Assembly (NCBI GenBank): GCA_963815115.1
Contig: CAWFFN010000007.1
Coordinates: forward strand, 320,001-384,000
Direction: 5' to 3'
Length of the DNA: 64,000 nucleotides
Origin: an uncultured delta proteobacterium
Lineage (GTDB): Bacteria > Desulfobacterota > Binatia > DP-6
A model generated the notes under the pieces. That model made no database searches, was not told the DNA's origin, and saw only the letters and a list, made by a program, of their open reading frames with translations. The position numbers were made by a program, and so were the translations under genes. This document shows positions 34,181 to 63,726 of this stretch, piece by piece (the stretch's first letter is position 1; the number at the start of each line of letters is the position of its first letter).

Positions 34181-34193
34181 GACGCGTGCGTTC

Positions 34194-34510: not shown

Positions 34511-34545
34511 ATCCAGATGAACGGGTGCCGGGCCACGGGACCCCG

Positions 34546-34561
34546 TGGCATGTTTTCTGCT
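34546..34561 (+). promoter_or_regulatory. sigma54 promoter of Cys-rich proteins D-E
   Basis: TGGCAT-GTTTT-CTGCT with GG-N10-GC spacing and an upstream IHF consensus. Confidence 0.72.
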
Positions 34562-34576
34562 GCCTGGAGGACCGCG

Positions 34577-38998: not shown

Positions 38999-40783
38999 AT
39001 GATCTGGAAGTCCAGCAGCCTGGCCGTCGCCGCACTCCTGGCGGGGGCTCTCGTGAGCCCTGCCCGGGCCAACATCCTGCACGTCGACGACGACGGTCTC
39101 GATCCCTTCGAGTGCGAGGCGGCGCAGTTTCACACCATCGCGGAGGCCCTCGCGACGGCCAACCCGGGCGACGAGATCCGGGTATGCCCGGGCGTGTATC
39201 CCGAGCAGGTGGTGCTCACGCAGGCGATCCGGCTGACCGGAATCTCGTTCGGCAGCGCCCGGCCCGTGATCAGGCCGACGGCGCTGCCCGCGTCGCGGCC
39301 CAGCCTGCTCGGCGGCAATCCGGTGACCGGCGCGATCATCGTCGACAACGAATTCGTCCGCATCACCAACCTGGAGATCGATCTCTCCAACGTGAACGTC
39401 ACGACCTGCCTGCCGTTCCTCACCGGCGTGTATCTGCGCCGGGCCAACGGCTCGGTGGAAAAGACACGGATCGAGAACGTGGCCGTGGCTGGCAACCCGA
39501 GCTGCGAGAGCGGCGTCGGGCTCTACGTCGAGAGCGGAGCGGTCGACGAGTTTCTCGGCAACCCCGTTCTGCTCCCGGCTCGCGTGATCGTCCGTGACCT
39601 GGACGTTTCCGGCTATCAGAAGGCCGGGCTCGTCGGGAACGGCCCGCGCACGGTCCTCATCGTGAAGGGTGGCGGGGCGACGGGTCTCGGAGCCACGGCG
39701 GGGGTGGTGCAGTATGGCTACCAGGTCGGCTTCGGCGCCAAGGGCAAGATCGCCCAGGTGTCCGCGAGCGGCCATCGCTCGCTCGTCACGGCCAAGGCCG
39801 CGGCGGGACTGCTCATCTTCCAGGCCGACCGGGTGAGCTTCCGGAAGAGCGACGTCAGCGACGGACAGGAAGGCGTCCTCTGCATCGGCGACCGCGCCCG
39901 GGTGAAGAAGACGAGCTTCAGTGACATGTCGGGAGACGGGGTCGTCTTCCTGGGCGACGCGAACCTGGCGGCAGCCAACTTGATCGAGCGCAGCAGCGTG
40001 GCCGGCGTGTTCATCAAGGGCGACCGCAACACGGTCCGGGGCGGGATCATGCGCGACCTTGGCAACGGCGTCTGGTTCCAGGACGGCGTCGGCAACAAGT
40101 ACGGCGGCGTCCACTTCGAGAACGTGCCGCTTCCTGCCCAGGGAGTGTACGGCGGGGTCCGCTGGGACTTGGGCAAGGCCTCGGCCGATCCGTTCTCCAC
40201 GGCCTGCGACACGGCCGCCGATTGCGACGACTCGAACTCGTGCACCACGGACGCTTGCGACCCGGCCAGCGGACACTGCTCCTACACGACGCTCCCTGCG
40301 GGGACCACGTGTGACGACCGGAACACCTGCACGACAGCAGACGTATGCAATGCCGCCGGTGCCTGTCAGGGTACGCTCGCGCCGGCCGGCACCGGGTGCG
40401 ACGACGGCAACTCGTGCACGCAGGTCGATACCTGCAACGCGAGCGGGGCATGCATCGGCACCCCGTCCCCGGTCGGCGTCTCCTGCGACGACGGGAACGC
40501 GTGTACGGGACCCGACACCTGCGCTGCGGGCGCCAGGTGCGTCGGGCTACCGGTCACGGTCGGTACGACCTGCGACGATGCAAATCAGTGCACGGCGAAC
40601 GATGCCTGCGACGCGTTCGGCATCTGCCGCGGGGCGGTGGCGCCGATCGGAAGCGCCTGCGATGACGGGAACGAGTGCACCATCGATCAGTGCGACACGG
40701 CCGTGTGCGAGGGCGACCCGGCGCTGGACGGGACCCCGTGCGCGGGCGGAACGCTCGCCTGCACGGCGGGCGTCTGTTCCTGA
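38999..40783 (+). CDS. Secreted Cys-rich repeat protein E (right-handed parallel beta-helix plus CDDGNxCT repeats)
   Basis: RBS GAGGGGG and signal peptide ending ARA. The beta-helix cap FHTIAEAL..ANPGDEIRVCPGVYPEQV and GYQKAG are followed by about six Cys repeats. Confidence 0.88.
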   Translation: MIWKSSSLAVAALLAGALVSPARANILHVDDDGLDPFECEAAQFHTIAEALATANPGDEIRVCPGVYPEQVVLTQAIRLTGISFGSARPVIRPTALPASRPSLLGGNPVTGAIIVDNEFVRITNLEIDLSNVNVTTCLPFLTGVYLRRANGSVEKTRIENVAVAGNPSCESGVGLYVESGAVDEFLGNPVLLPARVIVRDLDVSGYQKAGLVGNGPRTVLIVKGGGATGLGATAGVVQYGYQVGFGAKGKIAQVSASGHRSLVTAKAAAGLLIFQADRVSFRKSDVSDGQEGVLCIGDRARVKKTSFSDMSGDGVVFLGDANLAAANLIERSSVAGVFIKGDRNTVRGGIMRDLGNGVWFQDGVGNKYGGVHFENVPLPAQGVYGGVRWDLGKASADPFSTACDTAADCDDSNSCTTDACDPASGHCSYTTLPAGTTCDDRNTCTTADVCNAAGACQGTLAPAGTGCDDGNSCTQVDTCNASGACIGTPSPVGVSCDDGNACTGPDTCAAGARCVGLPVTVGTTCDDANQCTANDACDAFGICRGAVAPIGSACDDGNECTIDQCDTAVCEGDPALDGTPCAGGTLACTAGVCS

Positions 40784-43438: not shown

Positions 43439-44872
43439 ATGATGGAAACCCGCATCCTCATCGTCGACGACGATCCCTTCATCTGCCGGCAGCTCGAAGA
43501 GCTGTACACCTCGCAGCGCTACGCCGTCGCCTGCGCGCCCAATTCGACCGAGGCGCTGCGCCTGCTCGGGGAGCAGGAGTTCGCGCTGGCCGTGGTGGAC
43601 CTCAAGATCCCCGGTACGGACGGGATCGGCCTCACGCGGGAGATCCGCGACCGCTGGCCCGATCTCGACGTGATCATGATCACCGGCTACGCCAGCATCA
43701 AGGGCGCGGTCGAGGCGATCAAGCAGGGAGCCAGCGACTACATCACCAAGCCGTTCCAGAAGGAGGAGATCCTCCTCGCCACGGAGAAGATCCTCGAGAA
43801 ACGCCGCCTGCTGGACGAGATCAACTACCTGCGCAGCCAGCTGTCTGATCGCTACTCGTTCGCCAACATGGTGAGCCGCAACCGGGTGATGCACGAGATC
43901 TTCGAGACCATCAGCGTCCTGGCGCAGAACGACGCGACGGTGTTGATCTACGGCGAGTCGGGAACCGGGAAGGAGCTGGCGGCCCGTGCCATTCACTTCC
44001 AGGGCAAGCGCAAGAGTGGCCGCTTCGTCGCCATCAACTGTGCGGCGTTCCCCGACACGCTGCTCGAGAGCGAGCTCTTCGGGTACGAGCGCGGCGCGTT
44101 CACCGGCGCGATCCACGATCGCGTCGGCAAGATCGAGCTGTCGAGCGGCGGCACCCTGTTCCTCGACGAGATCGAGAGCATCTCGCTCAACATGCAGCTG
44201 AAGCTGCTGCGTGTGCTCGAGGAACGCGAGGTCGAGAAGCTCGGTTCGAACCGACGCATCAAGGTCAACATGCGGATCATCTGCGCGACCAACATGGACC
44301 TGGCTCAGGGCGTCGCCGAGGGCCGCATGCGCGAAGACTTCTACTATCGCATCAACGTGGTCCCGCTACGCATCCCGCCGCTGCGTGAACGGATCGAGGA
44401 CATCCCGTTGCTGGTCGGAGAGTTCCTCCGCAACAGCGAGATGGCTCGCGAGAAGGGGATCAACCGCCTGTCGAACAAGGCGCTGTCTCAGCTGATGAGC
44501 TACGCGTGGCCCGGCAACGTACGCGAGCTGGGCAACGTCATCGAGCGAGCCATCCTGCGGACCAGCGGATCGGTGATCCGCGAGGTCGACCTGCCCGGCC
44601 ATTCCAGCGTGGGCCGGGAGACCAGCAACGGCAACGGCCGGCAGGCGGGCTACGACTACGAGGTCCCGCTGAAGGAATACCTCCGGCGGGCGGAGAAGGA
44701 CTACCTGGCCCGCGTGCTGCGGAAGTACCGGGGGGGCATCAACCTGTCCGCGAAGCATGCTCTGGTGGATGCGGCGACGCTGCACCGGAAGATGAAGCTG
44801 CACGGGCTGCGCCGCGAGGAGTATCGCTTCCGGGGCAAGCTGGACGGCAGCGAGGCGATCGGGACCACGTGA
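43439..44872 (+). CDS. NtrC/AtoC family sigma54-dependent response regulator
   Basis: Receiver (ILIVDDD, VDLKIPG.DG, ITGY, YITKPF), Walker A GESGTGKE, ESELFG, GAFTGA, LFLDEI, WPGNVREL, Fis-type HTH. Confidence 0.97.
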   Translation: MMETRILIVDDDPFICRQLEELYTSQRYAVACAPNSTEALRLLGEQEFALAVVDLKIPGTDGIGLTREIRDRWPDLDVIMITGYASIKGAVEAIKQGASDYITKPFQKEEILLATEKILEKRRLLDEINYLRSQLSDRYSFANMVSRNRVMHEIFETISVLAQNDATVLIYGESGTGKELAARAIHFQGKRKSGRFVAINCAAFPDTLLESELFGYERGAFTGAIHDRVGKIELSSGGTLFLDEIESISLNMQLKLLRVLEEREVEKLGSNRRIKVNMRIICATNMDLAQGVAEGRMREDFYYRINVVPLRIPPLRERIEDIPLLVGEFLRNSEMAREKGINRLSNKALSQLMSYAWPGNVRELGNVIERAILRTSGSVIREVDLPGHSSVGRETSNGNGRQAGYDYEVPLKEYLRRAEKDYLARVLRKYRGGINLSAKHALVDAATLHRKMKLHGLRREEYRFRGKLDGSEAIGTT

Positions 44873-44999
44873 ATACCCGTTGGTACGGGCCATCGGGTCT
44901 AGGCTATCGAGCATCGGTGAGCGGGATTGCACGAGCGCCACACCAAAGCCCTGAACCGGGGCGATTCGGCGAGGCATTCATGGCACCAAAACACATGAT

Positions 45000-45012
45000 A
45001 ATCAGTAACTTA
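45000..45012 (+). promoter_or_regulatory. IHF-type binding site
   Basis: AATCAGTAACTTA fits WATCARNNNNTTR in an AT-rich patch 22 bp upstream of a -24 box. Confidence 0.6.
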
Positions 45013-45034
45013 CATCACCGTATGCGTTGGTCCG

Positions 45035-45050
45035 TGGCATTGAAATTGCT
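45035..45050 (+). promoter_or_regulatory. sigma54 promoter of the polysaccharide operon
   Basis: TGGCAT-TGAAA-TTGCT, near-perfect consensus. Confidence 0.85.
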
Positions 45051-45066
45051 GACCTTCGATACGGTC

Positions 45067-45861
45067 ATGAGTACGACCGAGGTTCGATCTGGACTCGGGG
45101 AGCCGGTCTCTGGGCGTTCCTCGGGTGGATTCGCGCACCCCGCGGTCCGGGCAGTCCAACTGTGCGTGCTGGCAGTCGGTATGCTGGCGGTGCTCGGTGG
45201 GTGCGGCGGGAGCCGGCCCCCGCAGGTCCCCTCCATGGCTCTTCTTCCGCCTCCGCCGCCGACGCCCGGGCCGGACTATCACATCCAGCTCGGCGACACC
45301 TTGAAGGTGGCCTTCCTGTTCCAGCCGGAGAACGACATCGATCTCGTGGTGCGGCCCGACGGGCGCATCTCGCTGGCTGCCGCCGGGGAGGTCGAGGCGG
45401 TCGGCAAGACCGAACAGGAGCTCGAGGAGGTCATCAAGGAGCGCGCCTCGTCGCATCTCCGGGATCCCGTCGTGACGGTCACGGTGACCAAGGTCGGCAC
45501 GCAGAATATCTACGTGGGAGGCGAGGTCCTGCGCCCCGGCGTCGTGGCCCTGGTCCCGGGAATGACGCCCTTGCAGGCCGTGATGGAGCAGGGCGGCTTC
45601 CGTCCCACGGCCAAGCGCGACAGCGTGGTGCTCATCGTGCCGACCGCCGACGGCAAGTTCTCGGCGTCGCGCATCAATCTCGAGCAGGTGCTCACCGACG
45701 GCGTGCCCGAGCGCGTCCGCCTTCGGCCGAACGCGGTCGTCTTCGTGCCGAAGACCTGGGTCGCCAACGCCGGCGACGTCGTCGACCTGTACGTCCGCGG
45801 GCTCATCCCGGCGCTGCCGCGCGTCGGCGTCGGGTACTCGCTGAACAACAACAACCAGTAG
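45067..45861 (+). CDS. wza: Polysaccharide export (OPX/Wza family) lipoprotein
   Basis: Lipobox LGGC, DYHIQLGDTL, VRPDGRISL...GEV.AVGKT, SLBB YVGGEVLRPG, C-terminal amphipathic helix. Start 45067 or later. Confidence 0.9.
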   Translation: MSTTEVRSGLGEPVSGRSSGGFAHPAVRAVQLCVLAVGMLAVLGGCGGSRPPQVPSMALLPPPPPTPGPDYHIQLGDTLKVAFLFQPENDIDLVVRPDGRISLAAAGEVEAVGKTEQELEEVIKERASSHLRDPVVTVTVTKVGTQNIYVGGEVLRPGVVALVPGMTPLQAVMEQGGFRPTAKRDSVVLIVPTADGKFSASRINLEQVLTDGVPERVRLRPNAVVFVPKTWVANAGDVVDLYVRGLIPALPRVGVGYSLNNNNQ

Positions 45862-45886
45862 TCGGACGGAGAGGAACGAAGACGAC

Positions 45887-47377
45887 ATGGCGACCCTCCA
45901 GACCCTCCCCGACGCAACCACGTTCCTCCCGGCTTCGGGAGGCGCAACCTCGCCGGTCGCAATACGCAGCGTCCTGTATGCCGTCTTCAAGCACCGGAGG
46001 CTCGTGCTCGGCATCCTGGCGATGGTGTTCCTGGGCTCGGCTCTGGCCGCGTTCCTCCGGCCGCGCACGTGGCTCGCCAGCAGCAAGGTGCTGGTGAAGC
46101 TCGGTGAGACGGTGCAGCTCGCACCCGCCGAGGCGCCGTCTCGCAGCGTCAACCTCCCCCTCAACCAGGACGTGGTGAAGACGGAAGCGGACATCATCAA
46201 GAGCCAGTCGGTGATCGCGGAAGCGGTCCGGCGTCTCGGCATTCAGCCCGAGCCGGGCACCGACATGGACGAGCTCCTCGCGGCGATGCAGCTCGCCACC
46301 ACCGTGACGCAGAACCCCGGTGGCAACATCCTGCAGATCAACTTCCTGGGCAGGGATCCGAAGCGGGCCGCGCGCAACGCGAATGCCATCACGGACGTGT
46401 ACATCGAGCACCACAACCAGGTGTACGGGAAGTCCGGAGTATCCGAGTTCTACCGCGAGCAGCTCAACGTGCTCGAGGGGCAGATGGGCCAGGCGGAGCG
46501 ACGCCTGAAGCAGTTCCTCGCGAGGAACAACATCGTCGACGCCGAGACCGAGATCAAGCTGCTCGCGGAGGACGAGATCGAGCAGGAGAAGGGGCTCCAG
46601 GCGCACCTGGCCAAGATCTCCGCGCTGCGCAAGAAGCTCAAGACCATCGAGGGGCAGCTGGCCAATACCCCGGAGCAGATCGCGTGGGGTGAGGAATACA
46701 CCACGAATCCCACGGCGCTCACCTACAAGAACAAGCTCGCCGAGCTCGAGGTGAGCCGGGCCAACGTCCTCCAGCGCTATATGCCGAACGACCGGCACGT
46801 GGTCGACTTCGACGAGCAGATCGCGGGTCTCAAGAATCGCCTGAGGGCCGAGCAGGACAAGCTGCTGAGCAAGCAGACGATGCGAACCAGCCTGCTCAAC
46901 ATGGACCTCAAGCGCGGGGTATTCTCGATCCAGGCGCTGCTCGCCGACGCGGAGGCGCGCAAGCCCGATCTGTGGCGTCGGCTGAAGGGCACCCAGAAGC
47001 ACCTCAAGACGCTGCGCCAGCTGAGCTTCCAGGTGGCCAACCTGCAGGACGAGGCCGACCGTAAGAAGTACGCCTACCAGCTGTACTGGAAGAAGCACGA
47101 AGAGGCTCGCGCCACCGAGGCCATGAGCGAGCAGAGCATGGTGAGCGTCAGCGTGGTCGATCGCGCGGTACCGCCGATCGATCCCCAGAACCCGCCGTGG
47201 ATACCGTTGGTCCTCGGGCTCTTTGCCGGGCTCGTGCTCGGCACGGCGACGGCAGTGGCGGTCGAGTTCCTGAATCGCCGCCTCCGCTTCGAGCAGGAGG
47301 TCGAGCACTATCTCGAGCTTCCCGTGCTCGCCGTGATTCCGGACCTGGACCACGTCCCCGATTTCGCGCGCGGATGA
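45887..47377 (+). CDS. Polysaccharide co-polymerase (GumC/Wzc membrane part)
   Basis: Two TM helices flank a long coiled coil. TEADIIKSQ, VVDRAVPP..P and LELPVLAVIP are present. Confidence 0.9.
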   Translation: MATLQTLPDATTFLPASGGATSPVAIRSVLYAVFKHRRLVLGILAMVFLGSALAAFLRPRTWLASSKVLVKLGETVQLAPAEAPSRSVNLPLNQDVVKTEADIIKSQSVIAEAVRRLGIQPEPGTDMDELLAAMQLATTVTQNPGGNILQINFLGRDPKRAARNANAITDVYIEHHNQVYGKSGVSEFYREQLNVLEGQMGQAERRLKQFLARNNIVDAETEIKLLAEDEIEQEKGLQAHLAKISALRKKLKTIEGQLANTPEQIAWGEEYTTNPTALTYKNKLAELEVSRANVLQRYMPNDRHVVDFDEQIAGLKNRLRAEQDKLLSKQTMRTSLLNMDLKRGVFSIQALLADAEARKPDLWRRLKGTQKHLKTLRQLSFQVANLQDEADRKKYAYQLYWKKHEEARATEAMSEQSMVSVSVVDRAVPPIDPQNPPWIPLVLGLFAGLVLGTATAVAVEFLNRRLRFEQEVEHYLELPVLAVIPDLDHVPDFARG

Positions 47378-47393
47378 TACTCGGAAGAGCGAC

Positions 47394-48227
47394 ATGAGCC
47401 GGATATACGACGCACTGAAGAAGCTCGAGGCGGAGAGCGGCAAGAGCGGTCACCACAACGGCGGCGGCAACGGGACGAATGGGTCCGGTGGCAACGGCAA
47501 CGGCAATGGACGCAAGGGCTGGCGCCCCTGGCCGTTCCGCCGTGGTGCCAGGGAGAGGCCCGCTCCGACGGCGATCAACTTCGAGCTCGGGCCCGAGGTC
47601 GAGGAAGCCTATCAGCGGCTCGGAACGAACCTCCTGGTGTCCCCGGGGCAGCTGGCGACCGATCATCCGAAGCTGCTCGGCGTGGTTGCGGCGGGCCACG
47701 GCGAGGGCGCGACGACCACCGCGGGCGTATTCGCGTCGATCCTGGTCCGCCGCCGTGGCGGGCGGGTGGTCGTCGTGGAAGGGAACATGCGCTCGCCCTC
47801 GTTCGAGACGGCGTTCGGCGTCAAGCCGGCGCCGGGGCTGGCCGAGATGATCCAGGGACAGGCGACGCTGGCCGCGGCCGCCCAGGCGACCTCCGTATCG
47901 AATCTGTTCGCGATCGCCGCGGGCCGCTCGACCGCTGCGCCCGTCGCCCTGTTCGACTCGCCGGGCTTGCCCGCGGCGTTCGCGCAGCTCCGCGAGAACT
48001 TCGACTTCGTCATCGTCGACCTCCCACCGGTCAACGTCTACGGCGATTCGCTGATCGTCGGGCCTCATCTCGATGCCGCGATCATCGTCATCGAGGCGGA
48101 CGCGACTCGTGTCCCGGACATCGAACGGGCGCGGCGAAAGCTCGAGCGTTGCGGGGTGCGCTTCGTTGGCTCCGTGCTGAACCGCCAGCGAAACTACATC
48201 CCGGCATTCATCGAGGAGATGCTGTGA
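47394..48227 (+). CDS. CpsD/CapB family tyrosine-kinase-like protein (probable pseudokinase)
   Basis: MSRIYDALKK, EEAYQRL, Walker A GEGATT, EGNMRSP, FDFVIVDLPP, GSVLN. Confidence 0.88.
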   Translation: MSRIYDALKKLEAESGKSGHHNGGGNGTNGSGGNGNGNGRKGWRPWPFRRGARERPAPTAINFELGPEVEEAYQRLGTNLLVSPGQLATDHPKLLGVVAAGHGEGATTTAGVFASILVRRRGGRVVVVEGNMRSPSFETAFGVKPAPGLAEMIQGQATLAAAAQATSVSNLFAIAAGRSTAAPVALFDSPGLPAAFAQLRENFDFVIVDLPPVNVYGDSLIVGPHLDAAIIVIEADATRVPDIERARRKLERCGVRFVGSVLNRQRNYIPAFIEEML

Positions 48228-48266: not shown

Positions 48267-49748
48267 ATGCCCGCGACTTCCGTCCCGAGCCGACCAGCCG
48301 CTGGCAACCCCGCCCTGATCCGGATCGCGATCGCGTTGGCATTGCCGGCGTTCGGAGCCGCGACGGTCGCGGGAACGCTCCTCGGTAAAGAGGTCATCGT
48401 CACCGCCGGATGGCTGGCGCTGGCGATTTCCGGTCTCCTCTTCATCCGTCCGGTCATCGGCATCGCCGTCATGACCGTGCTCTTCCTCCTGGCGGCGTAC
48501 CCGACGCTGCTCCAATCGCTCGGCTTTCTCACCATCAACAACCTGCTCGGGCTCTGCCTGGTCGTCCTGCTGGCGGCCCGGATCATCGAGACGCGAGATT
48601 TCTCGTTCCTCCGCATCCGTCAGGTGCGGATCCTGATCTTGATCGGTCTCCTGCTCCTGCTCGGCACCTACATGGCGGGGGTCCAGTTCCCGATGCTGCA
48701 GGCGACCGTCGGCAAGACGAAGGTCCTCGACAAGACGTCGGACATGGGCCACGACTTCGTCGCCCGCCTCGCCTATCTGATCTTCTTCGCCGTGTTCGTC
48801 CGCAGCCGGTCCGACGTGAGGATCATGTGCCTGGTCTTCATGCTCGGCCTGTACGCGGCCGTTCCGTCGGCGCTGGTGAACTGGTGGCAGGGCACGCTCA
48901 ACCGCGGCTTCCGCGTCGAGGCGAGCCTGACGTCCGGCTCCAACCCGAACCGGCTCGGAATGATCTGTCTCATCCAGATGATCCTGTGGTGGTTCTGGGC
49001 CCAGACGCGGCCAGGGGTCCTGCGCCAGGTGATCGCGTTCGGCGCCGTCGCTACGGCAGGGCTGGTCCTGCTCGCCACGGGCTCGCGGAGCGGACTGCTC
49101 GGCCTGGGATTCGTGGCGTTGATTCTCCAGACCGGGCCGCGACGGTTCCGGCTGCCCGCGGTCCAGGTGGCGCTGTTCGCGGTCCTGGGCGTCATCGCGA
49201 TCATCGCCATCGTGCCGGCGGAAACCTGGCAGCGCATGTCCACGCTGATGCCGGAGAAGGGGCAGATCGGAGCGACCTCGAACCAGATGCGCGAGGAGAC
49301 CCTGGAGCGTGCCTGGCAGGTGGCACAGGACTATCCGGTCTTCGGCGTCGGCCTCGGCAACTTCCGCGAGGTGACGCGGCAGGTCTACAAGGACGACTTC
49401 TTCCGGCCCCCCCACAACTCCTATCTGTGGGCCATGTGCGAGGGCGGCATCTTCGTCCTGGCCGCCTACCTCTGGCTCTTCTGGGTCACCTGGCAGGACC
49501 TGAAGCACGTCAGGCGGTACGCCCACCGCGACCCCGAGTTCGAGATCTGGGCGACCGCCATCCGGATGGTGTTCCTCCTGTTCTTCTTCTATTCGGCGTT
49601 TGCCGACCTCTGGCTGAACCCCTTGTGCTATGTCCTCATCGGGCTGGTGATCTCCATGCGCCAATACGTCGACACGACGCTGATCTCGCAGTCGGAGCGA
49701 GTTCCGGAGCCGCGCTCAGTGAGACTCGCCGGGCGGGCGGCTGCGTGA
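48267..49748 (+). CDS. O-antigen ligase/Wzy polymerase family membrane protein
   Basis: Multi-TM, with NPNRLG, TGSRSG, PVFGVGLGNF, PHNSYL..EGG. Confidence 0.9.
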   Translation: MPATSVPSRPAAGNPALIRIAIALALPAFGAATVAGTLLGKEVIVTAGWLALAISGLLFIRPVIGIAVMTVLFLLAAYPTLLQSLGFLTINNLLGLCLVVLLAARIIETRDFSFLRIRQVRILILIGLLLLLGTYMAGVQFPMLQATVGKTKVLDKTSDMGHDFVARLAYLIFFAVFVRSRSDVRIMCLVFMLGLYAAVPSALVNWWQGTLNRGFRVEASLTSGSNPNRLGMICLIQMILWWFWAQTRPGVLRQVIAFGAVATAGLVLLATGSRSGLLGLGFVALILQTGPRRFRLPAVQVALFAVLGVIAIIAIVPAETWQRMSTLMPEKGQIGATSNQMREETLERAWQVAQDYPVFGVGLGNFREVTRQVYKDDFFRPPHNSYLWAMCEGGIFVLAAYLWLFWVTWQDLKHVRRYAHRDPEFEIWATAIRMVFLLFFFYSAFADLWLNPLCYVLIGLVISMRQYVDTTLISQSERVPEPRSVRLAGRAAA

Positions 49749-55519: not shown

Positions 55520-57439
55520 ATGTGCGGGATTGCCGGCGAGCTGCGACTGACACCCGGGGAACGGCCCAGTGCGGCGCGGGTGCGGGCGATGTGCGACGTC
55601 ATGGTCCATCGCGGCCCGGACTCGTTCGGCGAGTTCTCCGACGGCGAGGCGGCCCTCGGAATGCGCCGGCTCGCCATCGTCGACGTCGCTGGCGGCCAGC
55701 AGCCCCTGGGCAACGAGGACGGCTCCGTGCAGGTGGTCTGCAACGGTGAGATCTACAACTCCCCGGCGCTCGCTCGCGAGCTCGAGGCCCGCGGCCACAC
55801 GCTGCGCACCCGCTCCGACGTCGAGGTGATCGCGCACCTCTACGAGGAGGACGGCGTCGACGTCGCGGCGCGCCTCGACGGGATGTTCGCATTTGCCCTG
55901 TGGGACACGAAGGCGCACCGCCTCGTCCTCGGCCGCGACCGCGTCGGCATCAAGCCGCTCTACGTGACCCGCCTCGGCGATCGTCTGGTGTGGGGCTCGG
56001 AGGCGAAGTGCCTCCTCGCCGCCGGCCTCGATCCGCAGCTCGACCCGCAGGCGCTGCACGACTATCTCACCCTCGGCTACGTCGCGGGCCCGGCGTCCAT
56101 CTTCGCCGGCGTCCGGCAGCTCGCTCCCGGGCACGTCCTCGTCGCCGAGCCGGGGAAGGAGCCGGTCACCCGGCGCTACTGGTCGCTCGAGGGGCACGTC
56201 GCGGGACGCGAGACGCGGAGCGATGCCGACTGGGAGGCCGAGCTGGTCTCGACGCTGCGCGGCGCGGTGCAGAGCCATCTCATGGCGGACGTTCCGCTCG
56301 GCGTGTTCCTGTCCGGCGGCCTCGATTCGGGCAGCATCGTCGCCCTCATGCACGAGCTGGGGGTGCACCCGATCCGCACCTTCACCATCGGCTTCGAGGA
56401 GAAGAGCTTCAGCGAGCTCGACGAGGCGCGACAGGTCGCGACGCGCTACGGGACCGAGCATCACGAGCTGATCGTCCGGCCCGACGCGATCTCGCTGCTG
56501 CCGCGGCTCGTACGCAGCTTCGACGAGCCCTTCGCGGACTCCTCGGCCATCCCCGTCTTCCACGTCTCCGAGCTGGCCCGGCGCCACGTCACCGTGGTGC
56601 TGTCGGGCGAGGGGGGCGACGAGGTGCTCGCCGGCTACGAGACCTACCGCGCGCGCCGTGTCGCGGCGCTCTACGCGCGCCTGCCGCAGGCGATCGGCCG
56701 GCGGCTCGTCCCGGCGGTGGTGCGGCAGCTTCCGGTCTCGCATGCCAAAGTCAGCTTCGACTACAAGGCGAAACGCTTCGTCACCGGCGCCTATCTGCCC
56801 CCGGCCGCCGGCCACCTCTGGTGGAAGACGATTCTCGACGAGGACGGCAAGGCGGCGCTCTACGGAGACGGTAGGGACGGCCGAGCCCCGACGGTGCGGC
56901 TCTTCGAGGACCTCTTCTCGGAGAGCGACGGCGACGAGCTCGACCGGCTGCAATTTGTCGACACGAAGCTTTACCTGCCGGCCGACATTCTGGTTAAGGT
57001 CGACCGGATGAGCATGCAGCACTCGCTCGAGGCGCGCGTTCCCTTCCTGGACCGCTCGATGCTCGAGCTGTCGCGCCGCATTCCCTCGCGCCTGCGGCTG
57101 CGCGGGATGACGACCAAGTACCTGTTGCGCCGTGCCATGGCGGAACGGCTTCCGCCGGCCGTCCTGAACGGCAAGAAGCGCGGCTTCAACGTACCCATGC
57201 CGGCGTGGCTGGCCGGCGGCCTGCGTGATTTCACGCGTGACGTCCTGGCGCCCGACCGCGTTCGGCGCCAGGGGATCTTCCGCCCGGCGGCGGTCGAGCG
57301 ACTGGTGGCGGAGCACCTGAGCCGTCGGATCGATCACAGCCGCGCAATCTGGACCCTGCTCGTGCTATCGGTCTGGCAGGACGAGTTCCTTCGCGACGTT
57401 CCTCCCGTGCCCCAGCGGGTGGCCGCCGCCTCGCTCTGA
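55520..57439 (+). CDS. asnB: Asparagine synthase (glutamine-hydrolysing) family amidotransferase
   Basis: MCGIAG, HRGPD, RRLAIVD, NGEIYN, RDRVGIKPLY, FLSGGLDS, SGEGGDE, KVDRMSM.HSLEARVPFLD, KRGF. Confidence 0.95.
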   Translation: MCGIAGELRLTPGERPSAARVRAMCDVMVHRGPDSFGEFSDGEAALGMRRLAIVDVAGGQQPLGNEDGSVQVVCNGEIYNSPALARELEARGHTLRTRSDVEVIAHLYEEDGVDVAARLDGMFAFALWDTKAHRLVLGRDRVGIKPLYVTRLGDRLVWGSEAKCLLAAGLDPQLDPQALHDYLTLGYVAGPASIFAGVRQLAPGHVLVAEPGKEPVTRRYWSLEGHVAGRETRSDADWEAELVSTLRGAVQSHLMADVPLGVFLSGGLDSGSIVALMHELGVHPIRTFTIGFEEKSFSELDEARQVATRYGTEHHELIVRPDAISLLPRLVRSFDEPFADSSAIPVFHVSELARRHVTVVLSGEGGDEVLAGYETYRARRVAALYARLPQAIGRRLVPAVVRQLPVSHAKVSFDYKAKRFVTGAYLPPAAGHLWWKTILDEDGKAALYGDGRDGRAPTVRLFEDLFSESDGDELDRLQFVDTKLYLPADILVKVDRMSMQHSLEARVPFLDRSMLELSRRIPSRLRLRGMTTKYLLRRAMAERLPPAVLNGKKRGFNVPMPAWLAGGLRDFTRDVLAPDRVRRQGIFRPAAVERLVAEHLSRRIDHSRAIWTLLVLSVWQDEFLRDVPPVPQRVAAASL

Positions 57440-57474: not shown

Positions 57475-59382
57475 GTGATTGCTCTCGAAGCCAAGGAGTT
57501 CAAGGTCGCCCCCCCTCCGGAGGAGTTCCGCGACCTCGGGCTGCGGGCCGACTCGGCATGGAGCCGCCTCTGGCAGCTCGCGGTTGCTGCCATCGGACTC
57601 CTGCTCCTCCTGCCCGTGTCGATGGCGATCGCGGTCGCCACCAAGCTGACGAGCCGCGGCCCCGTCCTCTACAAGGGGACCCGCATCGGCCGGAACATGG
57701 AGCCCTTCACGATCTTCAAGTTCCGGACGCTCCTGGTCGACGCCGAGCAGCGCATCGGCGCCCGCCTGCTCACGCCCGGTGATCCCCTCTACACGCCCGT
57801 CGGCCGCTTCCTGAAGCGCACCAAGCTGGACGAGATTCCGCAGCTGCTGAACGTCGTGCGCGGGGACATGAACATGGTCGGCCCGCGACCGATCCGGCCG
57901 GTGTTCCTCGCCACCTCGATGCGCGAGATCCGCAACTACGCGGCGCGCTTCGTCGTCCGGCCGGGGATGACGGGCCTGGCGCAGCTCCGCGGCGGCTACT
58001 TCACGCACCCGCGCGACAAGCTGCGCTACGACATCCTCTACATCCGCAACCGCGGCTTCTGGCTCGACTTGAAGCTCGTGGTCGCGACGTTCGTGAAGCT
58101 CCTCAACCGGTGGCTCACGCTCGGCCTGCTCCTGGCGCTCATCTTCCTGAGCGCGTCGTTCGTGCCGGCCGTGTTCCGTTCGCCCTTCGAGCTCGAGCTG
58201 GGCGGATTCCACCTCTCGCCCTTCGAGGGGCTCGGCCTCCTGCTGGCGGCGTTCGTGCTCGTCCGTCAGATCCCCGTCCACCAGCTCTATCTCTATCGCA
58301 CGCCCACCAACCGTCCGATGGTCTGCTTCGTGGTATTCTCCCTGCTCGCGGGCCTCGTCGCCGGTGATCTGGTGCCGCGGCTGCGGGACGCGGCGTACTT
58401 CACGGCGTCGGGCTTCCTGCTCTTCTTCCTGGTGGTGAGCGGCGAGGTGACGGCGGGCTTCGCACGCCGGGCAACCCGGCTGGTCGCGCTGGCGGCGGTG
58501 GCGGTCGCGGTGGTCGGCATCCTCCAGCTGGCGCTGGAGGCGCATGCCCTGGCGGCGGCGGCCGGCGGCTCGGACGGCGGCCTGCCCCGGGTCGCGTCCA
58601 CGCTCGGAAGTCCGGTCGTGCTGGCCGCGTACCTGGTGCTGGGCATCCCGCTCGTGTTCGTCGAGCTGGTATGTGCGGAGCGACGCGAGGAGCGCGATTT
58701 CTGGCTCATCTGCACCACGCTCGTCGTGGTCGCCGTGCTGCTCACCCAGACCCGCCTGTCGCTGCTTGCGCTCTGGCTGACCGGGGTCGTGTTCGCGTGG
58801 CGCGTCTCCCGGCGAGCCTTCCGGCTCGTCCTCGGCGCCGCCCTCGCGCTCCTCGGCGTGCTGGTGATGTCGGGGGCGCTGCGTCTGTCGCCGGCCGACA
58901 TCGGCGCCGAATTCTCGCGGCGGCTCACCGTGACCGCGGCGACGGTATCGGAAGAAGCCATGGGCCTGCGTGGCCTCGTCGGGACCGATCCCGGCAAGGG
59001 CGCAGTTGCCATGGTGGAGGTCGAGCACGGGCCCGACGGCGCCCCCGAACGGGTGCACAACGAGAACATGCACTTGACGCTGGTGCTCCGCACCGGCCTG
59101 ATCGGATGGGCGCTCATCATGTGGGTCATCGGCGCCGCGCTCGCCGGCATCTATCGCGGTAGCGGGGCGGTGAGTGACCGGCGCCTGGCGCTCACGCTCT
59201 GGGCGATCTTCTCCTCGGGCCTCGGCTTCCTCATCTCGATGAGCAACTTCAACGCCTTCTACAATCCGACGATCCAGATCATGTTCTGGGGACTGCTCGG
59301 AATCGGGACTGCGATCGCGACCCACTTCGGGGGCCGGCGGCCGCAGTTCAACGTGATCTACCGCTTCGGGCAGGGCGAATGA
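57475..59382 (+). CDS. Sugar transferase (phosphoglycosyl transferase) fused to an O-antigen ligase/Wzy-like domain
   Basis: The N-terminus has FTIFKFRT, KLDEIPQLLNV.RGDM.MVGPRP, RPGMTGLAQ and YDILY. About 430 aa of multi-TM sequence follows, with RVASTLGSP, LTQTR and ENMHL..RTGLIG. Confidence 0.88.
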   Translation: MIALEAKEFKVAPPPEEFRDLGLRADSAWSRLWQLAVAAIGLLLLLPVSMAIAVATKLTSRGPVLYKGTRIGRNMEPFTIFKFRTLLVDAEQRIGARLLTPGDPLYTPVGRFLKRTKLDEIPQLLNVVRGDMNMVGPRPIRPVFLATSMREIRNYAARFVVRPGMTGLAQLRGGYFTHPRDKLRYDILYIRNRGFWLDLKLVVATFVKLLNRWLTLGLLLALIFLSASFVPAVFRSPFELELGGFHLSPFEGLGLLLAAFVLVRQIPVHQLYLYRTPTNRPMVCFVVFSLLAGLVAGDLVPRLRDAAYFTASGFLLFFLVVSGEVTAGFARRATRLVALAAVAVAVVGILQLALEAHALAAAAGGSDGGLPRVASTLGSPVVLAAYLVLGIPLVFVELVCAERREERDFWLICTTLVVVAVLLTQTRLSLLALWLTGVVFAWRVSRRAFRLVLGAALALLGVLVMSGALRLSPADIGAEFSRRLTVTAATVSEEAMGLRGLVGTDPGKGAVAMVEVEHGPDGAPERVHNENMHLTLVLRTGLIGWALIMWVIGAALAGIYRGSGAVSDRRLALTLWAIFSSGLGFLISMSNFNAFYNPTIQIMFWGLLGIGTAIATHFGGRRPQFNVIYRFGQGE

Positions 59383-61364
59383 GCGATCGACCGTCTCGGC
59401 TCGGCGGCGCGATCCGCGGACTCGGCCTCGGGGCGCTCGCCGGCGCGCTCTGGTTCGCCCTGGAGGTGATAGGGAATCGGCTCGGGGGCGGCTTCGTCCC
59501 CGTGCCGCTCCTGATCGCGATGGCGCAGCTCGACCTCGGCCTCGGCGCGGTTGCCGGCGCCGTGCTCGGTGCGTTGTTGCCGCGCGGCGGCCTCGCGCTC
59601 GGACTCGCACTCGCCATGGCCTATGGGTTTCTACGCGTCTTCGAGCCGCCGGGCATGGGGGCCGAGGCGGTCTTCGTGCTGGTTGCCGCCGTCCTGGTCC
59701 TCGGTGCCGTGCGCCTCGCGGACCGCGACGGGACGGGGGTCCTCGCCTTCGTGCACGCAACGCTGCTCGGCGCCCTGGGAGTGCTGGGGTTGGAGACCGT
59801 GCTCGACCAGATGCACGCTCACGCGCTGCGCGGCCTGCGCCTGCCCGTCGCGATCGCGGTTCTTCCGGCCCTGCTGGTGGCCGCGGACTGGCTCGTCGGC
59901 CTGGTGATCCGCCGCCGCGGCATGCGGCTCGCCATCGAGACGGTCGCGGTGCTCGTCACGTGCGCGATGCTCGGCCGGCCGCTCTCGACGGCCCCGCTCG
60001 AGAGCCGCGTGGTCACGGCGGTGCCGCCTCCGGCCGGCACCCCGGACATCTTCCTGGTCTCGCTCGACACGACGCGCGCGGACCACCTCTCGCTCTACGG
60101 CTACGGGCGGCCGACCTCGCCCAACTTGGAAGCGCTGGCGTCGGATGCGCTCGTCTACACCCAGGCACGCTCGGCGGCGGGCTGGACGCTGCCCGGCCAC
60201 GCCTCGATGCTCACGGGCATGTACCCGAGCCGGCACGGCGCGCACCTGGCCGGCGGATGGCTGCCGGGGGAGTCGATCGACGGCCGGCGCAACGTCGCCT
60301 TTCCGCTCGCCGCCGACAAGGTGACGCTGGCCGAGGCGCTGCGCGACCGCGGCTACACCACCGCCGGCTTCGTCGCGAACTTCTCCTATCTCTACCGTGA
60401 TTTCGGCCTGGCCCAGGGCTTCTCGCTCTACGAGGATGCGCCGGGGTTGCTGCTGCGGGTGCGTCCGCCCGCGGTGCGCTTCGCCCAGCGCTTCTCGCCC
60501 GGATTCTGCCTCAAGCCCTATCGCACCGCGCGGGACATCAACCGCCTCGCCCTCGACTGGCTGGACCAGGCGCCTTCGGGCCGACCGGTGTTCGTGTTCG
60601 TGAACTACATGGAGCCGCACCAGCCATGGCTGGCGCCCCCTCCCCACGACCGCTGGGTGTCGGAGTTGCCCCAGGCGCGCGCCCTCGCGACCAAGGACCT
60701 CTATACCCACGAGGTGAAGAACTTCACCCCCGAGGAGATCACCTTCATCCAGGCGAACTACGACGGCCAGGTGGCCGCCATGGATGACGCCCTCGGCGAG
60801 CTGGTTGCGGAGCTGAAGGCGCGCGGGCGCTACGAGCGGTCGCTCATCATCGTCACCGCCGACCACGGCGAGCTGCTCGGCGAGCACGGCTTCGTCGGTC
60901 ACATGGGTCGGATGCTCTACGAGCCCCTCCTGCACATCCCTCTGGTGGTCAAGTTCCCCGGTGCCGACCACCCGCGCGGCCGGGTGGACGGCCCGGTGCA
61001 GACCGTCGACGTCACGCCCACCGCGCTGCACGAGGCCGGCGCCGCGCTGCCGCCGGACGTCCAGGGGCAGGACCTTCGCCACGTGACCCGTCCGAGCCTG
61101 GCCGAGGAGGACATCAATCCCTTCCTGGTGGCCGACTACGGAGAGACCTACGACCGCGCGGTGCGCGTGCTGTTCGACGGCAGCTGGAAGCTCATCTCGA
61201 CGTCACGCGGGCAGCGGATGCTCTTCGATCTTTCCCGCGATCCGGGGGAGACCCACGACCTCGCCGCGGCGGAACCCGAGCGGGTCGACGAGCTCGCGCG
61301 CCGCCTCGAGGATCGCATGAGCACCATGGTCGCCACGGCCGAACCGACCAGGCAGGTGAACTAG
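59379..61364 (+). CDS. Membrane-anchored sulfatase-like hydrolase/transferase
   Basis: About 7 N-terminal TM helices, then SLDTTRADH, WTLPGHASMLTG, NYMEPH.P, YDGQV, TADHGE, GH, and LFDL..DPGE. Confidence 0.88.
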   Translation: MSDRPSRLGGAIRGLGLGALAGALWFALEVIGNRLGGGFVPVPLLIAMAQLDLGLGAVAGAVLGALLPRGGLALGLALAMAYGFLRVFEPPGMGAEAVFVLVAAVLVLGAVRLADRDGTGVLAFVHATLLGALGVLGLETVLDQMHAHALRGLRLPVAIAVLPALLVAADWLVGLVIRRRGMRLAIETVAVLVTCAMLGRPLSTAPLESRVVTAVPPPAGTPDIFLVSLDTTRADHLSLYGYGRPTSPNLEALASDALVYTQARSAAGWTLPGHASMLTGMYPSRHGAHLAGGWLPGESIDGRRNVAFPLAADKVTLAEALRDRGYTTAGFVANFSYLYRDFGLAQGFSLYEDAPGLLLRVRPPAVRFAQRFSPGFCLKPYRTARDINRLALDWLDQAPSGRPVFVFVNYMEPHQPWLAPPPHDRWVSELPQARALATKDLYTHEVKNFTPEEITFIQANYDGQVAAMDDALGELVAELKARGRYERSLIIVTADHGELLGEHGFVGHMGRMLYEPLLHIPLVVKFPGADHPRGRVDGPVQTVDVTPTALHEAGAALPPDVQGQDLRHVTRPSLAEEDINPFLVADYGETYDRAVRVLFDGSWKLISTSRGQRMLFDLSRDPGETHDLAAAEPERVDELARRLEDRMSTMVATAEPTRQVN

Positions 61365-61367
61365 CCG

Positions 61368-62471
61368 ATGCGTCCCAACGGAACCCAGGCCCCCTCCTCG
61401 CCGGAGCCGGCGCCGGGCGGCGTTCGCCGCGTCACCTCGATCGCGCGCTGGCTGTCGCGCCGCAAGACATCGGCGGCGCAGCCGGCGCCCGCCGTCTCGG
61501 TCGTGATGCCGGTCTACAACGCGGAGGCCACGCTCGAGGAGTGCCTCATGCGGCTCGGGCAGTCGACCTTCGAGGACTTCGAGGTCGTCGTCGTCGACGA
61601 CGGTTCGACCGACCGCTCGGCGGAGATCCTCGCGCGCTTCCCGGTCCGGGTGGTGCCGAGCCCGGGACGGGTGGGGCCCGCAGCGGCGCGCAACCTGGGA
61701 GCCCAGATCGCCACCGGAAAGATCCTCTTCTTCATCGATTCCGACGTGATGGTCCGGCCGGATACGTTGCGCCTGCTCGCGGACGGGTTCGAGCAGCCAG
61801 AGGTGGATGGCTTCTGCGGGGTTCAGGCAGCCGAGATGCGCCACCGGGACCTCGTGAGCCAGTACAAAAACCTGTGGATGCGGTGGACCTATTTGAGGCA
61901 GACTGGCGACGTGCCCCTCTTCTACACCACCGCCGCCGCCATCCGGCGGGATGCGTTCCTGCGTGTCGGCGGCTTCGACGTGGGCTACTCGACCCCCAAC
62001 GTCGAGGATACCGCCTTCGGGCAGAAGCTGAGGCGGCTGGGCATCCGGGTGCGCGTCCACCCCCTGCTCGAGGTCGAGCACGTCAAGCGCTACTCGCTCC
62101 GCGGCCTGCTGCGGACGGACTTCATGCGCGCCGTGTCGCTCACGCGCCTCAAGCTGCGCCACCCCACCGACCTGGCTGAGAACAACACCTCCGTGCCGTC
62201 GAGCTACATGGCGAGCGTACCGCTGAGCGGTCTCGCCGTGCTGGGGCTCACCGTCGGCCTGGGCGCCGGCTGGTGGCCGGCGACCGCCATCGGCCTGCTC
62301 GCCGCGGGCGGCGTGCTCGGGCTGAACTTCGGATTCCTGGAGGCCATCCGGCGCAGCGAGGGCTGGGCGCGCGTCCTGTCGGCGATCCCCCTGCTCTGGC
62401 TGGAGCTGCTGGTGGTGGGAGCGGGCACGGCCATCGGGCTGCTGTCGTTTCCGTTCGGCCGGCGCTACTGA
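61368..62471 (+). CDS. Glycosyltransferase family 2 with C-terminal TM helices
   Basis: SVVMPVYN, VDDGSTD, GPAAARN.G, FIDSD, VGGFD, VED. Confidence 0.93.
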   Translation: MRPNGTQAPSSPEPAPGGVRRVTSIARWLSRRKTSAAQPAPAVSVVMPVYNAEATLEECLMRLGQSTFEDFEVVVVDDGSTDRSAEILARFPVRVVPSPGRVGPAAARNLGAQIATGKILFFIDSDVMVRPDTLRLLADGFEQPEVDGFCGVQAAEMRHRDLVSQYKNLWMRWTYLRQTGDVPLFYTTAAAIRRDAFLRVGGFDVGYSTPNVEDTAFGQKLRRLGIRVRVHPLLEVEHVKRYSLRGLLRTDFMRAVSLTRLKLRHPTDLAENNTSVPSSYMASVPLSGLAVLGLTVGLGAGWWPATAIGLLAAGGVLGLNFGFLEAIRRSEGWARVLSAIPLLWLELLVVGAGTAIGLLSFPFGRRY

Positions 62472-62496: not shown

Positions 62497-63726
62497 ATGG
62501 GCTACCTCGACTACCTGCAGCACGGGAAGAAGATCTTCCGCAAGAAGGGCGAGCTCCCCGTGTACCTGGTCTACTTCATCACCGACGCCTGCAATGCCAA
62601 GTGCAAGCACTGCCTGCTCGCCGACGGTGCCCACCCCGGGTGGGAAGAGCCCTCGATGACCTACCGCAAGCAGGAGCTCTCGCTCGAGGAACTGGACAAG
62701 GTCACGAGCAGCATCGGCAAGGGCAGCCTGATGTTTCTCCTGCCCACGGGCGGTGAGCCGTTCCTACGCAAGGACATCGGCGAGATCGTGAAGGTCTTCC
62801 ACAAGAACACCGGCGTGCGGAACGTGGGCATCCCCACCAACGGCAGCACGACGGCGCGCACCGTGTCCATCGTGAAGGACCTGTGCGAGAGCTGCCCGGA
62901 GCTCGACCTCCACATCGACGTCTCGCTCGACGGCGTGGGCGAGCTGCACGACGAGATCCGCGTCTTCCCCGGTCTCTTCAAGCGCTCGATCGAGACCTAC
63001 AAGGCGCTGCGCGAGATCGAGAAGCACTACAAGAACTTCAGCGTGCAGGTGGAGACCACGGTCTCCAAGCACAACGAGGACGTGCTGATCGAGAACTACG
63101 AGTGGTTCCGCCACAATCTCGACGTCGACACGGTGTTCACGCTGCTGACGCGGGGCAGCCCCAAGGAGCCGCTCGCCAAGTTCTTCGACGTCGAGAAGTA
63201 CCAGGCGTACGCCGATCACATGGAGCGCGAGTACAAGAGCGGCTCGCTCTCCGGGTACGATCATTTCCCGTTCGCCGACTTCATCAACGCGAAGCGGATC
63301 GTACGCCACAACCTGATCGCCAAGATCGTGCGCGAGAACGAGTACCAGATTCCGTGCTACGCGGGGAACCTGGGCGGCGCGATGTTCGCCAACGGCGACA
63401 TCTACCCGTGCGAGCTGCTCATCGATCGGAAGCTCGGCAACGTCCGCGAGGCCGGGTACGACTTCCGGAAGATCTGGTTCAGCGAGGCCGCCGAGGCGTC
63501 GCGTCGCTTCATCCGGGAGTCGAAGTGCTTCTGCACCTACGAGTGCTTCCTCACCATCAACATCCTGTTCAACCCGCGCATGATGCCGGCCGTCCTGAAG
63601 GAGTGGTCGAGTCTGAAGGCACGGAAGGCGTGGCGGAAGCTGACGGGCCGGCCGCCGGCGCGCGCCACGCTCGCCAGCTGCGGAACGGGTACCAGCAACA
63701 CGGCCACGGCCGCGGCCGACGCCTGA
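62497..63726 (+). CDS. Radical SAM protein with SPASM/twitch-like C-terminal domain
   Basis: CNAKCKHC, GGEPFLR, TNG, VSLDG..HD.IR, CYAG..NGDIYPC..CFC..EC. RBS AAGGAG. Confidence 0.93.
   Translation: MGYLDYLQHGKKIFRKKGELPVYLVYFITDACNAKCKHCLLADGAHPGWEEPSMTYRKQELSLEELDKVTSSIGKGSLMFLLPTGGEPFLRKDIGEIVKVFHKNTGVRNVGIPTNGSTTARTVSIVKDLCESCPELDLHIDVSLDGVGELHDEIRVFPGLFKRSIETYKALREIEKHYKNFSVQVETTVSKHNEDVLIENYEWFRHNLDVDTVFTLLTRGSPKEPLAKFFDVEKYQAYADHMEREYKSGSLSGYDHFPFADFINAKRIVRHNLIAKIVRENEYQIPCYAGNLGGAMFANGDIYPCELLIDRKLGNVREAGYDFRKIWFSEAAEASRRFIRESKCFCTYECFLTINILFNPRMMPAVLKEWSSLKARKAWRKLTGRPPARATLASCGTGTSNTATAAADA

Follow-up and report, generated by a model that had tools for sequence, protein, structure and literature searches.

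A small phosphoglycosyl transferase that continues into a diverged WaaL-fold membrane domain in uncultured Binatia

PglC of Campylobacter (PDB 8e37/8g1n), a small monotopic phosphoglycosyl transferase (PGT), is a minimal catalytic core with an Asp-Glu dyad and a proline-kinked re-entrant helix. Other monotopic PGTs, termed large or bifunctional (WbaP, PDB 8t53; Lg-PGT and Bi-PGT, PMC10942596), add accessory or pathway-linked domains to this core; in WbaP the additions, four transmembrane (TM) helices and a nucleotide-binding-like domain, lie on the N-terminal side. On the opposite face of the membrane, the O-antigen ligase WaaL of Cupriavidus metallidurans (CmWaaL; PDB 7TPG; CAZy family GT121, clan GT-C1) is a 12-TM protein; three of its residues, Arg191, Arg265 and His313, have been assigned roles (PMC10920833), Arg191 and Arg265 in binding the phosphates of undecaprenyl pyrophosphate (Und-PP) and His313 in activating the acceptor. 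According to the same source, inverting Wzy-type polymerases of the WaaL clan (GT125-129) carry Asp or Glu where WaaL has its His, together with one or two outer-face Arg, and the conserved residues of both groups sit on the outer face (PMC10920833). Finally, WadA of Brucella unites an N-terminal cytoplasmic sugar-transferring domain and a C-terminal 12-TM ligase-fold domain in one polypeptide; it is described as a characterised case of catalysis on both membrane faces, with a ligase domain that is active and needs Arg614 (PMC9938171). How does a gene that combines features of all of these compare with them? The gene in question lies at 57475..59382 on the forward strand of a 64,000-nucleotide (nt) stretch of DNA from an uncultured delta proteobacterium of the Binatia (hereafter the window, meaning the whole stretch; its G+C content is about 70%) and encodes a PGT that continues, in the same chain, into a membrane domain with the fold of WaaL (the C-domain).

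The N-terminal part of this protein is a complete PglC-like small monotopic PGT. The open reading frame (ORF) is uninterrupted, encodes 635 amino acids (aa) and starts with GTG, 6 nt downstream of a GGAGA; 36 nt separate it from the end of the upstream gene, and its stop overlaps the ATG (59379) of the downstream gene. Pfam Bac_transf (PF02397) covers residues 31-210 and reaches from position 2 to position 178 of its 179 (E 3.2e-54; 183.6 bits against a cut-off of 27), and the D119-E120 dyad, in the motif KLDEIPQ, is present in all 107 close and all 19 distant fusions aligned (126/126). An uninterrupted frame with a complete PGT core and its dyad is what an earlier note on this DNA, made from the letters and the translations, had read there. 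The re-entrant helix is seen in model and alignment as helices 28-44 and 46-59 with a break at position 45, beside the invariant P47. A profile of the full-length protein matches PglC (8g1n_A) at E 1.8e-43, and the modelled domain superposes on PglC (8e37_A; Z 19.2, rmsd, root-mean-square deviation, 2.4 Å over 170 residues) and on WbaP (8t53_A; Z 21.2). It is not a large PGT of the WbaP type: the catalytic core begins at about residue 28, without an N-terminal four-helix bundle and cytoplasmic domain, and the NCBIfam models for large PGTs, TIGR03025 and TIGR03023, are matched only over their C-terminal 185 positions and below their cut-offs. The predicted activity of the core is transfer of a phosphosugar to polyprenol phosphate.

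Where PglC stops, the last core helix of the fusion protein continues into 12 more TM helices, without a linker or intergenic-like sequence; the extra part is thus C-terminal and WaaL-like, whereas that of WbaP is N-terminal. No part of the protein is better conserved than the junction (residues 205-220), which has a mean column conservation of 0.97 across 107 orthologues; a further alignment of fusions shows K208 and G217 to be invariant and R212, W213 and T215 to be kept in at least 90%. The likeness to WadA is one of layout: the N-terminal domain of WadA is a Leloir glycosyltransferase (GT) of family GT25 that acts on lipid A-core (PMC9938171), while that of the fusion, in which Pfam finds no GT25 domain, would act on undecaprenyl phosphate (Und-P), and any ligase activity of its C-domain is putative.

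What is the C-terminal half? In an AlphaFold2 model built from 55 sequences (pLDDT 82.3, pTM 0.79), 12 long helices follow residue 214; the earlier note was right to expect a helical membrane domain here and undercounted its helices, at about 10. Residues 211-621 of the model superpose on residues 5-407 of WaaL chain 7tpg_B (Z 24.7, rmsd 4.3 Å, 366 of 403 residues), Foldseek matches the C-domain to WaaL at E 5.3e-7, and SEDS proteins come after WaaL in the structure comparison, with Z of 11-15. A large periplasmic loop, residues 467-531 in the model, precedes TM10. Sequence profiles see this relationship from a distance. Pfam Wzy_C (PF04932), the family of WaaL-like proteins, does not match the fusion protein even at E<=1; faint NCBIfam matches, to TIGR03097, a ‘putative O-glycosylation ligase’ (22.6 bits), and to IctB, fall on residues 268-467; and a full-length profile run against PDB sequences retrieves PGT structures only. 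The link comes from intermediates. A phmmer search with the C-domain alone against 1.84 billion representative sequences gave 372 matches at E<=0.001, and of the 87 matches of at least 380 aa among the 150 listed, all of which were scanned with Pfam, 59 carry Wzy_C without Bac_transf, 25 carry Bac_transf and 3 carry neither. Seven of the 25 Bac_transf-bearing relatives also match Wzy_C (E<=0.001), four of them above 31.7 bits. A bridging profile, made from the window domain, 40 stand-alone Wzy_C proteins and distant fusions, matches 7tpg_B at E 1.7e-15 and was the only profile to reach WaaL. Since the searches reach canonical Wzy_C proteins and the bridging profile reaches 7tpg_B, the C-domain can be placed by homology within the Wzy_C superfamily, where it forms a divergent branch tied in by these intermediates; the nearest stand-alone relatives are of the [D/E]-N-M-Y-L class, the Wzy_C branch from which the C-domain descends. 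The claim that the C-terminal part is Wzy_C-like therefore holds for fold and superfamily and fails for a Pfam Wzy_C match. Descent as a recent duplicate of the cluster's own Wzy_C protein is ruled out by a BLASTP comparison of the two (E 0.28). Wzy_C proteins that reach 620-690 aa and lack Bac_transf (P0211 and others) owe their length to unrelated N-terminal membrane extensions, in which a phmmer search with the PGT domain gave no match.

The fused form is the rule wherever this C-domain is found. A search with residues 215-635 gave 186 matches, of which 120, with identities of 63-100%, were listed; PF02397 is present in 113 of these, which have a length of about 630 aa, and of the seven without it, five are fragments on contigs of at most 1.6 kb, one is a call that starts in the middle of a helix and one has an N-terminus that looks out of frame. 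The apparent stand-alone forms P0128, P0130, P0134, P0143 and P0045 begin inside helices or after TM1 and were set aside as cut or mis-started calls rather than split genes. The C-domain occurs in 24 of 41 related genomes (19/24 of those in the same family) and in 61 genomes of a class-wide sample of 301. Its distribution by family is uneven: f1, the family of the window, 19/24; f7, 17/20; f10, 19/19; f8, 3/48; f2, 1/8; f5, 1/1; and none in 14 other families. In 58 of the 61 class genomes it is whole, in one frame of at least 564 aa; one genome (G142) gives a partial match only, and in two (G001:C11:269804-271067 and G168:C24:197272-198488) it lies in two pieces in different frames, suggestive of a frameshift or of faulty assembly. 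Bac_transf and the C-domain share one ORF in all nine related loci fetched, from five families. A sample of 301 genomes from the phylum gave matches only in the window's own genome and in G006, both of family f1, and none in any other class at E<=1e-15. A related-locus search of contigs with a full-length alignment, which used PGT-domain patterns, returned 80 ordinary PGT loci, in none of which tblastn found the C-domain at E<=1e-5, so that this search does not bear on the fusion. Source labels of proteins 66-70% identical include Candidatus Binatia, Eisenbacteria and Limnocylindria; Myxococcota is the commonest phylum among the nearest ESM Atlas clusters; and some product names given to relatives at the JGI read ‘glycosyltransferase/O-antigen ligase’. 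The checks that the earlier note had proposed, of domain architecture, taxonomic spread and predicted structure, thus bear its architecture out, and neither of the two outcomes it had named as fatal, separate genes in the relatives or a C-terminal part unlike Wzy_C, was found.

Has the fused domain kept the catalytic apparatus of WaaL? HMMER alignment and column comparison put CmWaaL R191 at R427 (LLTQTR), R265 at R483 (FSRRLTV) and H313-N314 at E530-N531 (N-E-N-M-H-L). Both WaaL arginines thus have equivalents in this protein, and the conserved acceptor-activating His is replaced by Glu530. Among 40 stand-alone Wzy_C relatives, R427 is Arg in 40 and R483 in 38, and position 530 is His in 24, Asp in 11 and Glu in 5. 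The 107 close full-length orthologues keep both arginines without exception and have Glu (68), Ala (25), Asp (13) or Gln (1) at position 530. Sixteen diverse fusions keep R427 in 14 cases and R483 in five, and at position 530 they have Glu in three and otherwise Pro, Ala, Gly, Asn and others, and no His. A further arginine, R372, is retained in 39/40, 98/107 and 13/16 of these three sets, respectively. Families f5, f10 and f2 keep R372 and R427 with Ala, Thr or Pro at position 530; in f7 (three loci) and f8 (one locus) R372, R427 and the base have all been replaced. With Glu and arginines in place, the protein of the window shows the residue pattern of inverting polymerases; as described in PMC10920833, however, those enzymes keep their acid, whereas the fusion family has Ala there in 25 of 107 close orthologues and has lost the acid in most distant fusions.

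The distribution of constraint over the protein is also unlike that of WaaL. When regions are assigned from the helices of the model, with the WaaL anchors giving the orientation, the mean conservation of columns across the 107 orthologues falls from the junction to the cytoplasmic loops of the C-domain (0.88), the PGT domain (0.86), the C-terminal tail (0.84), the TM helices (0.78) and the periplasmic loops (0.66). In 40 stand-alone proteins, taken as a control, the order is reversed (periplasmic loops 0.38, cytoplasmic loops 0.30), and the 25 positions conserved at 80% or more all lie outside the cytoplasmic regions. Among the positions conserved at 80% or more in 13 distant fusions are P277 and R407. 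W410 is specific to fusions (13/16, against 4/40 stand-alone proteins), and so is the end of the cytoplasmic tail, F631-G632: position 631 is Phe in 12 and Tyr in three of 16 fusions, and 31 of 40 stand-alone proteins have a gap there, the tail being absent from stand-alone WaaL/Wzy_C relatives. Mapped on the model, constraint has shifted towards the cytoplasmic side and this fusion-specific tail, so that the conserved residues are concentrated on the inner face rather than, as in WaaL, on the outer one; the best-conserved surfaces of the C-domain would then face the PGT.

The reading that we favour, and to which we give an even chance, is that the gene encodes an initiating PGT with a diverged accessory domain of WaaL fold, which binds carrier lipid and is not a classic ligase. 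Across the family the C-domain is probably no longer a standard ligase or polymerase, because its acceptor-activating position lacks the constraint seen in stand-alone proteins and its strongest conservation is cytoplasmic; in the clade of the window it probably still binds a pyrophosphate lipid. On the cytoplasmic face, the PGT would convert a nucleotide sugar and Und-P into Und-PP-sugar; at the outer face, the fused domain would act as an accessory module that binds Und-PP or Und-PP-glycan and may hold the PGT beside the polymerisation machinery or regulate it there. Polymerisation itself would fall to the stand-alone Wzy_C protein of the cluster, which the earlier note had recognised as a Wzy-family protein and which has the canonical Arg/Arg/His. 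A canonical Wzy_C gene lies upstream of the fusion, on the same contig and strand, in all five other genomes checked, at distances of 9.7 kb, about 14 kb (three genomes) and 32 kb. The proposal that the first and last steps of the pathway are fused in one protein thus survives as a statement about architecture; that the second half performs a ligase, polymerase or O-oligosaccharyltransferase ‘last step’ is doubtful, given the variable position 530, the arginines lost in f7 and f8 and the canonical Wzy_C that accompanies the fusion.

Several observations weigh against this reading. R427, R482/R483, N531 and H533 are invariant in all 107 close orthologues, and 81 of these have an acid at position 530; with invariant Arg, Asn and His and an acid where inverting polymerases use Asp or Glu (PMC10920833), the C-domain could be a working transferase. 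Its periplasmic loops still show a conservation of 0.62-0.66, which means that the outer face has not been left to drift. The topology, and with it the assignment of loops, was derived from a single AlphaFold model with WaaL as anchor, and the loop alignment among distant fusions is uncertain, above all at R483. No Wzx gene was found in the window region or in the 18 kb downstream, which leaves the pathway here incompletely defined; a Wzx gene is present in the related loci L101, L104 and L106.

If the catalytic residues were in use, the protein would be truly bifunctional: the PGT would prime the carrier inside, the C-domain would be a second Und-PP-glycan transferase, a polymerase or a ligase with E530 or H533 as its base, and the stand-alone Wzy_C would do the other job. 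We regard this as a tenable possibility that falls short of an even chance. The residues kept in the close orthologues, R372 included, speak for it, as does the combination R427/R483/E530, which fits the inverting-polymerase pattern in which the Glu or Asp aligns with WaaL His313 (PMC10920833); so do the [D/E]-N-M-Y-L class of the nearest stand-alone relatives, the presence in one cluster of two Wzy_C-type proteins, in keeping with one polymerase and one ligase, and the precedent of WadA, a cytoplasmic GT joined to an active O-antigen ligase (PMC9938171). Against it stands the Ala found at position 530 in 25/107 close orthologues. Neither the base nor R483 is conserved in the 16 diverse fusions, in contrast to 40/40 and 38/40 in stand-alone proteins; families f7 and f8 keep the fusion without the arginines; and the periplasmic loops are the least conserved part of the protein.

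A narrower proposal goes further than the accessory module favoured here and makes the C-domain a pseudo-glycosyltransferase sensor, in which Und-PP or Und-PP-glycan, once bound on the outside, would turn the cytoplasmic PGT on or off by way of the rigid junction, the conserved cytoplasmic loops and the fusion-specific C-terminal tail; we consider it unlikely as a specific mechanism. Channelling of the carrier by the fusion, which the earlier note had put forward, is possible.

The earlier note had also suggested that glycan is transferred to the Thr-rich Cys-repeat (Dicty_CTDC) proteins of the window. The Wzy_C family also includes PglL-type O-oligosaccharyltransferases, so the common fold would allow a PglL-like enzyme, and three such Cys-repeat genes do lie upstream of the cluster; there is, however, no His at the position equivalent to His313, and linkage gives the idea no support. 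Dicty_CTDC genes are common in related genomes and are unlinked to the fusion cluster there: in five other fusion genomes they are on other contigs or, in one, 71 kb away, and in nine loci the roughly 8 kb that flank the fusion on each side contain none. Such a role is very improbable. That the fusion is an artefact, two adjacent PGT and Wzy-like genes merged by a sequencing or assembly error, is excluded: an unfused PGT gene does stand directly 5' of a canonical Wzy_C gene on the same strand elsewhere in this genome (G000:C7:791643-793202, L002), and the C-domain is in two pieces in G001 and G168, but the single ORF of about 630 aa recurs in the 113 listed relatives, from many independent assemblies, and in the 58 class genomes, and the junction, free of anything like a linker or intergenic sequence, is the best-conserved stretch of the protein. 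The sequencing runs listed as sharing words with this DNA have word shares of at most 0.19 and include no RNA run; among the short contigs of four of them no listed piece spans 58049-58203, so that they speak neither for nor against the junction.

The gene encodes the predicted initiating PGT of a Wzx/Wzy-type exopolysaccharide (EPS) cluster that resembles the XrtA/PEP-CTERM set. The cluster (Table 1) opens with a sigma-54 response regulator, a Wza-like exporter, a Wzz-like protein, a BY-kinase and the canonical Wzy_C; AlkP-type enzymes, two deacetylases with GT2 enzymes, the AsnB-type amidotransferase and the fusion follow; then come the membrane sulfatase-family protein, a GT2 and a radical SAM/SPASM protein, and further downstream a GT2, YdjM, CobW and UDP-glucose dehydrogenase. 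The amidotransferase is directly upstream of the fusion in eight of the nine other loci; AsnB homologues of this kind are predicted to convert uronic acids to uronamides (PMC7468200). The sulfatase-family neighbour downstream is less constant, recurring in only one of the nine loci (L100); a possible role is to decorate the polymer with a phospho-substituent.

Table 1. The fusion gene, its parts and the neighbouring features (positions in the window)
Feature	Position	Strand	Basis and remarks
Dicty_CTDC Cys-rich repeat protein, large	32456-34303	-	upstream of EPS cluster
Dicty_CTDC Cys-rich repeat protein, large	34545-38918	+	upstream of EPS cluster
Dicty_CTDC Cys-rich repeat protein, large	38999-40783	+	upstream of EPS cluster
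Export and chain-length genes: Wza-like outer-membrane polysaccharide export protein (OPX; start uncertain), Wzz-like polysaccharide co-polymerase (PCP), BY-kinase	44506..48227	+	profile matches
Stand-alone canonical Wzy_C with Arg/Arg/His	48267..49748	+	Pfam Wzy_C E 9.3e-21; motif columns
AsnB-type glutamine amidotransferase	55520..57439	+	Pfam Asn_synthase E 2.7e-102; TIGR03108 587.6 bits, below cut-off of 816.9
Whole fusion gene	57475..59382	+	635 aa, GTG start; orthologues of the same length
Small monotopic PGT domain, residues 1-213	57475..58113	+	re-entrant helix with P47, D119-E120, GPRP motif; Pfam, PglC/WbaP fold, invariant columns
Codons of catalytic Asp119-Glu120 dyad (KLDEIPQ)	57829..57834	+	D/E kept in aligned fusions
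Domain junction, residues 205-220 (VKLLNRWLTLG)	58087..58134	+	no linker; column conservation 0.97
12-TM WaaL/Wzy-fold domain, residues 215-635	58117..59382	+	7tpg_B superposition, Foldseek, bridging profile
R427 codon, equivalent of CmWaaL Arg191 (Und-PP phosphate binding there)	58753..58755	+	alignment to 7tpg_B
R483 codon, equivalent of CmWaaL Arg265	58921..58923	+	alignment to 7tpg_B; alignment columns
E530 codon, at position of CmWaaL His313 (acceptor-activating), motif N-E-N-M-H-L	59062..59064	+	alignment
Fusion-specific cytoplasmic C-terminal tail, residues 619-635 (FNVIYRFGQGE)	59329..59379	+	strand 625-630 in model (DSSP)
Membrane sulfatase/AlkP-family protein, 661 aa; membrane region at the N-terminus, then a sulfatase/AlkP-type domain	59379..61364	+	translational coupling by ATGA overlap with fusion stop; faint phosphoethanolamine transferase matches

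The likeness to XrtA/PEP-CTERM EPS clusters lies in the kinds of genes that adjoin: an amidotransferase, deacetylases, a PGT, a ligase-like protein, Wza/Wzz/kinase and a sigma-54 response regulator. Unlike those clusters, this one contains no exosortase (PF09721), the sole match in the genome being on contig C9 and not on C7, and its PGT and ligase-like protein are one polypeptide. The models that define the set are all matched below cut-off: in addition to TIGR03108 (Table 1), TIGR03013 scores 178.2 bits against 393.35, TIGR03097 22.6 against 188.1, TIGR03027 104.5 against 180, TIGR03007 110.2 against 278.85 and TIGR03018 71.9 against 230.65.

Two further features of the surroundings recur among the loci. 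The block GT2, radical SAM/SPASM, GT2, YdjM (61368-62471 and 62497-63726 in the window, continuing at L098:758-2105) is found again in L100 and L101, and L103 has the radical SAM gene and one GT2 gene of it. In families f7 and f8, a beta-helix/NosD-like gene on the opposite strand stands beside the fusion in L104 (7094-8494) and L105 (7235-8497) and about 3 kb away in L107 (3907-5196); its product is a candidate polysaccharide lyase or epimerase for the cluster.

How new is this architecture? A full-text literature search found no paper that describes or tests a fusion of a PGT with Wzy_C; the 2021 survey by O'Toole et al. in PNAS lay outside that search. Its abstract reportedly lists sugar-modifying enzymes, glycosyl transferases, regulatory domains and polytopic PGTs as the fusion partners of PGTs. 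The earlier note knew of no characterised fusion of a PGT with such a domain; a precedent for the concept is WadA, in which a GT and a ligase facing opposite sides of the membrane form a characterised fusion (PMC9938171). Elaborated PGTs are already a known kind, described as Lg- and Bi-PGTs (PMC10942596). ESM Atlas holds a cluster of 70 members of about 1030 aa, of the WbaP family, in which Bac_transf is found in 100%, Wzy_C in 99% and CoA_binding_3 in 57%; this is an apparently independent, second PGT + Wzy_C architecture, with a canonical Wzy_C. Other Wzy_C fusions are seen among the distant matches (P0249, P0257, P0250, P0232, P0240, P0244): a MurJ-type flippase with Wzy_C (981-1110 aa) and Wzy_C with GT4, with a C5-epimerase or with tetratricopeptide repeats (TPR).

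The fusion bears on how cells match the first, cytoplasmic step of Und-P-dependent glycan assembly to the later periplasmic ones, in which the carrier is set free, for it joins the two sides covalently. If the C-domain did act as a sensor, initiation would be matched to the availability or recycling of a scarce carrier lipid, a feedback across the membrane built into one protein. The family also grades from clades that retain the arginines (f1, f5 and f10) to clades that have lost them (f7 and f8), which gives a handle on how a ligase-fold domain may serve as a lipid-binding or regulatory module. For the organisms themselves, it points to an AsnB-type amidotransferase gene and, next to it downstream, a fused PGT gene as a conserved pair in an uncultured soil lineage.

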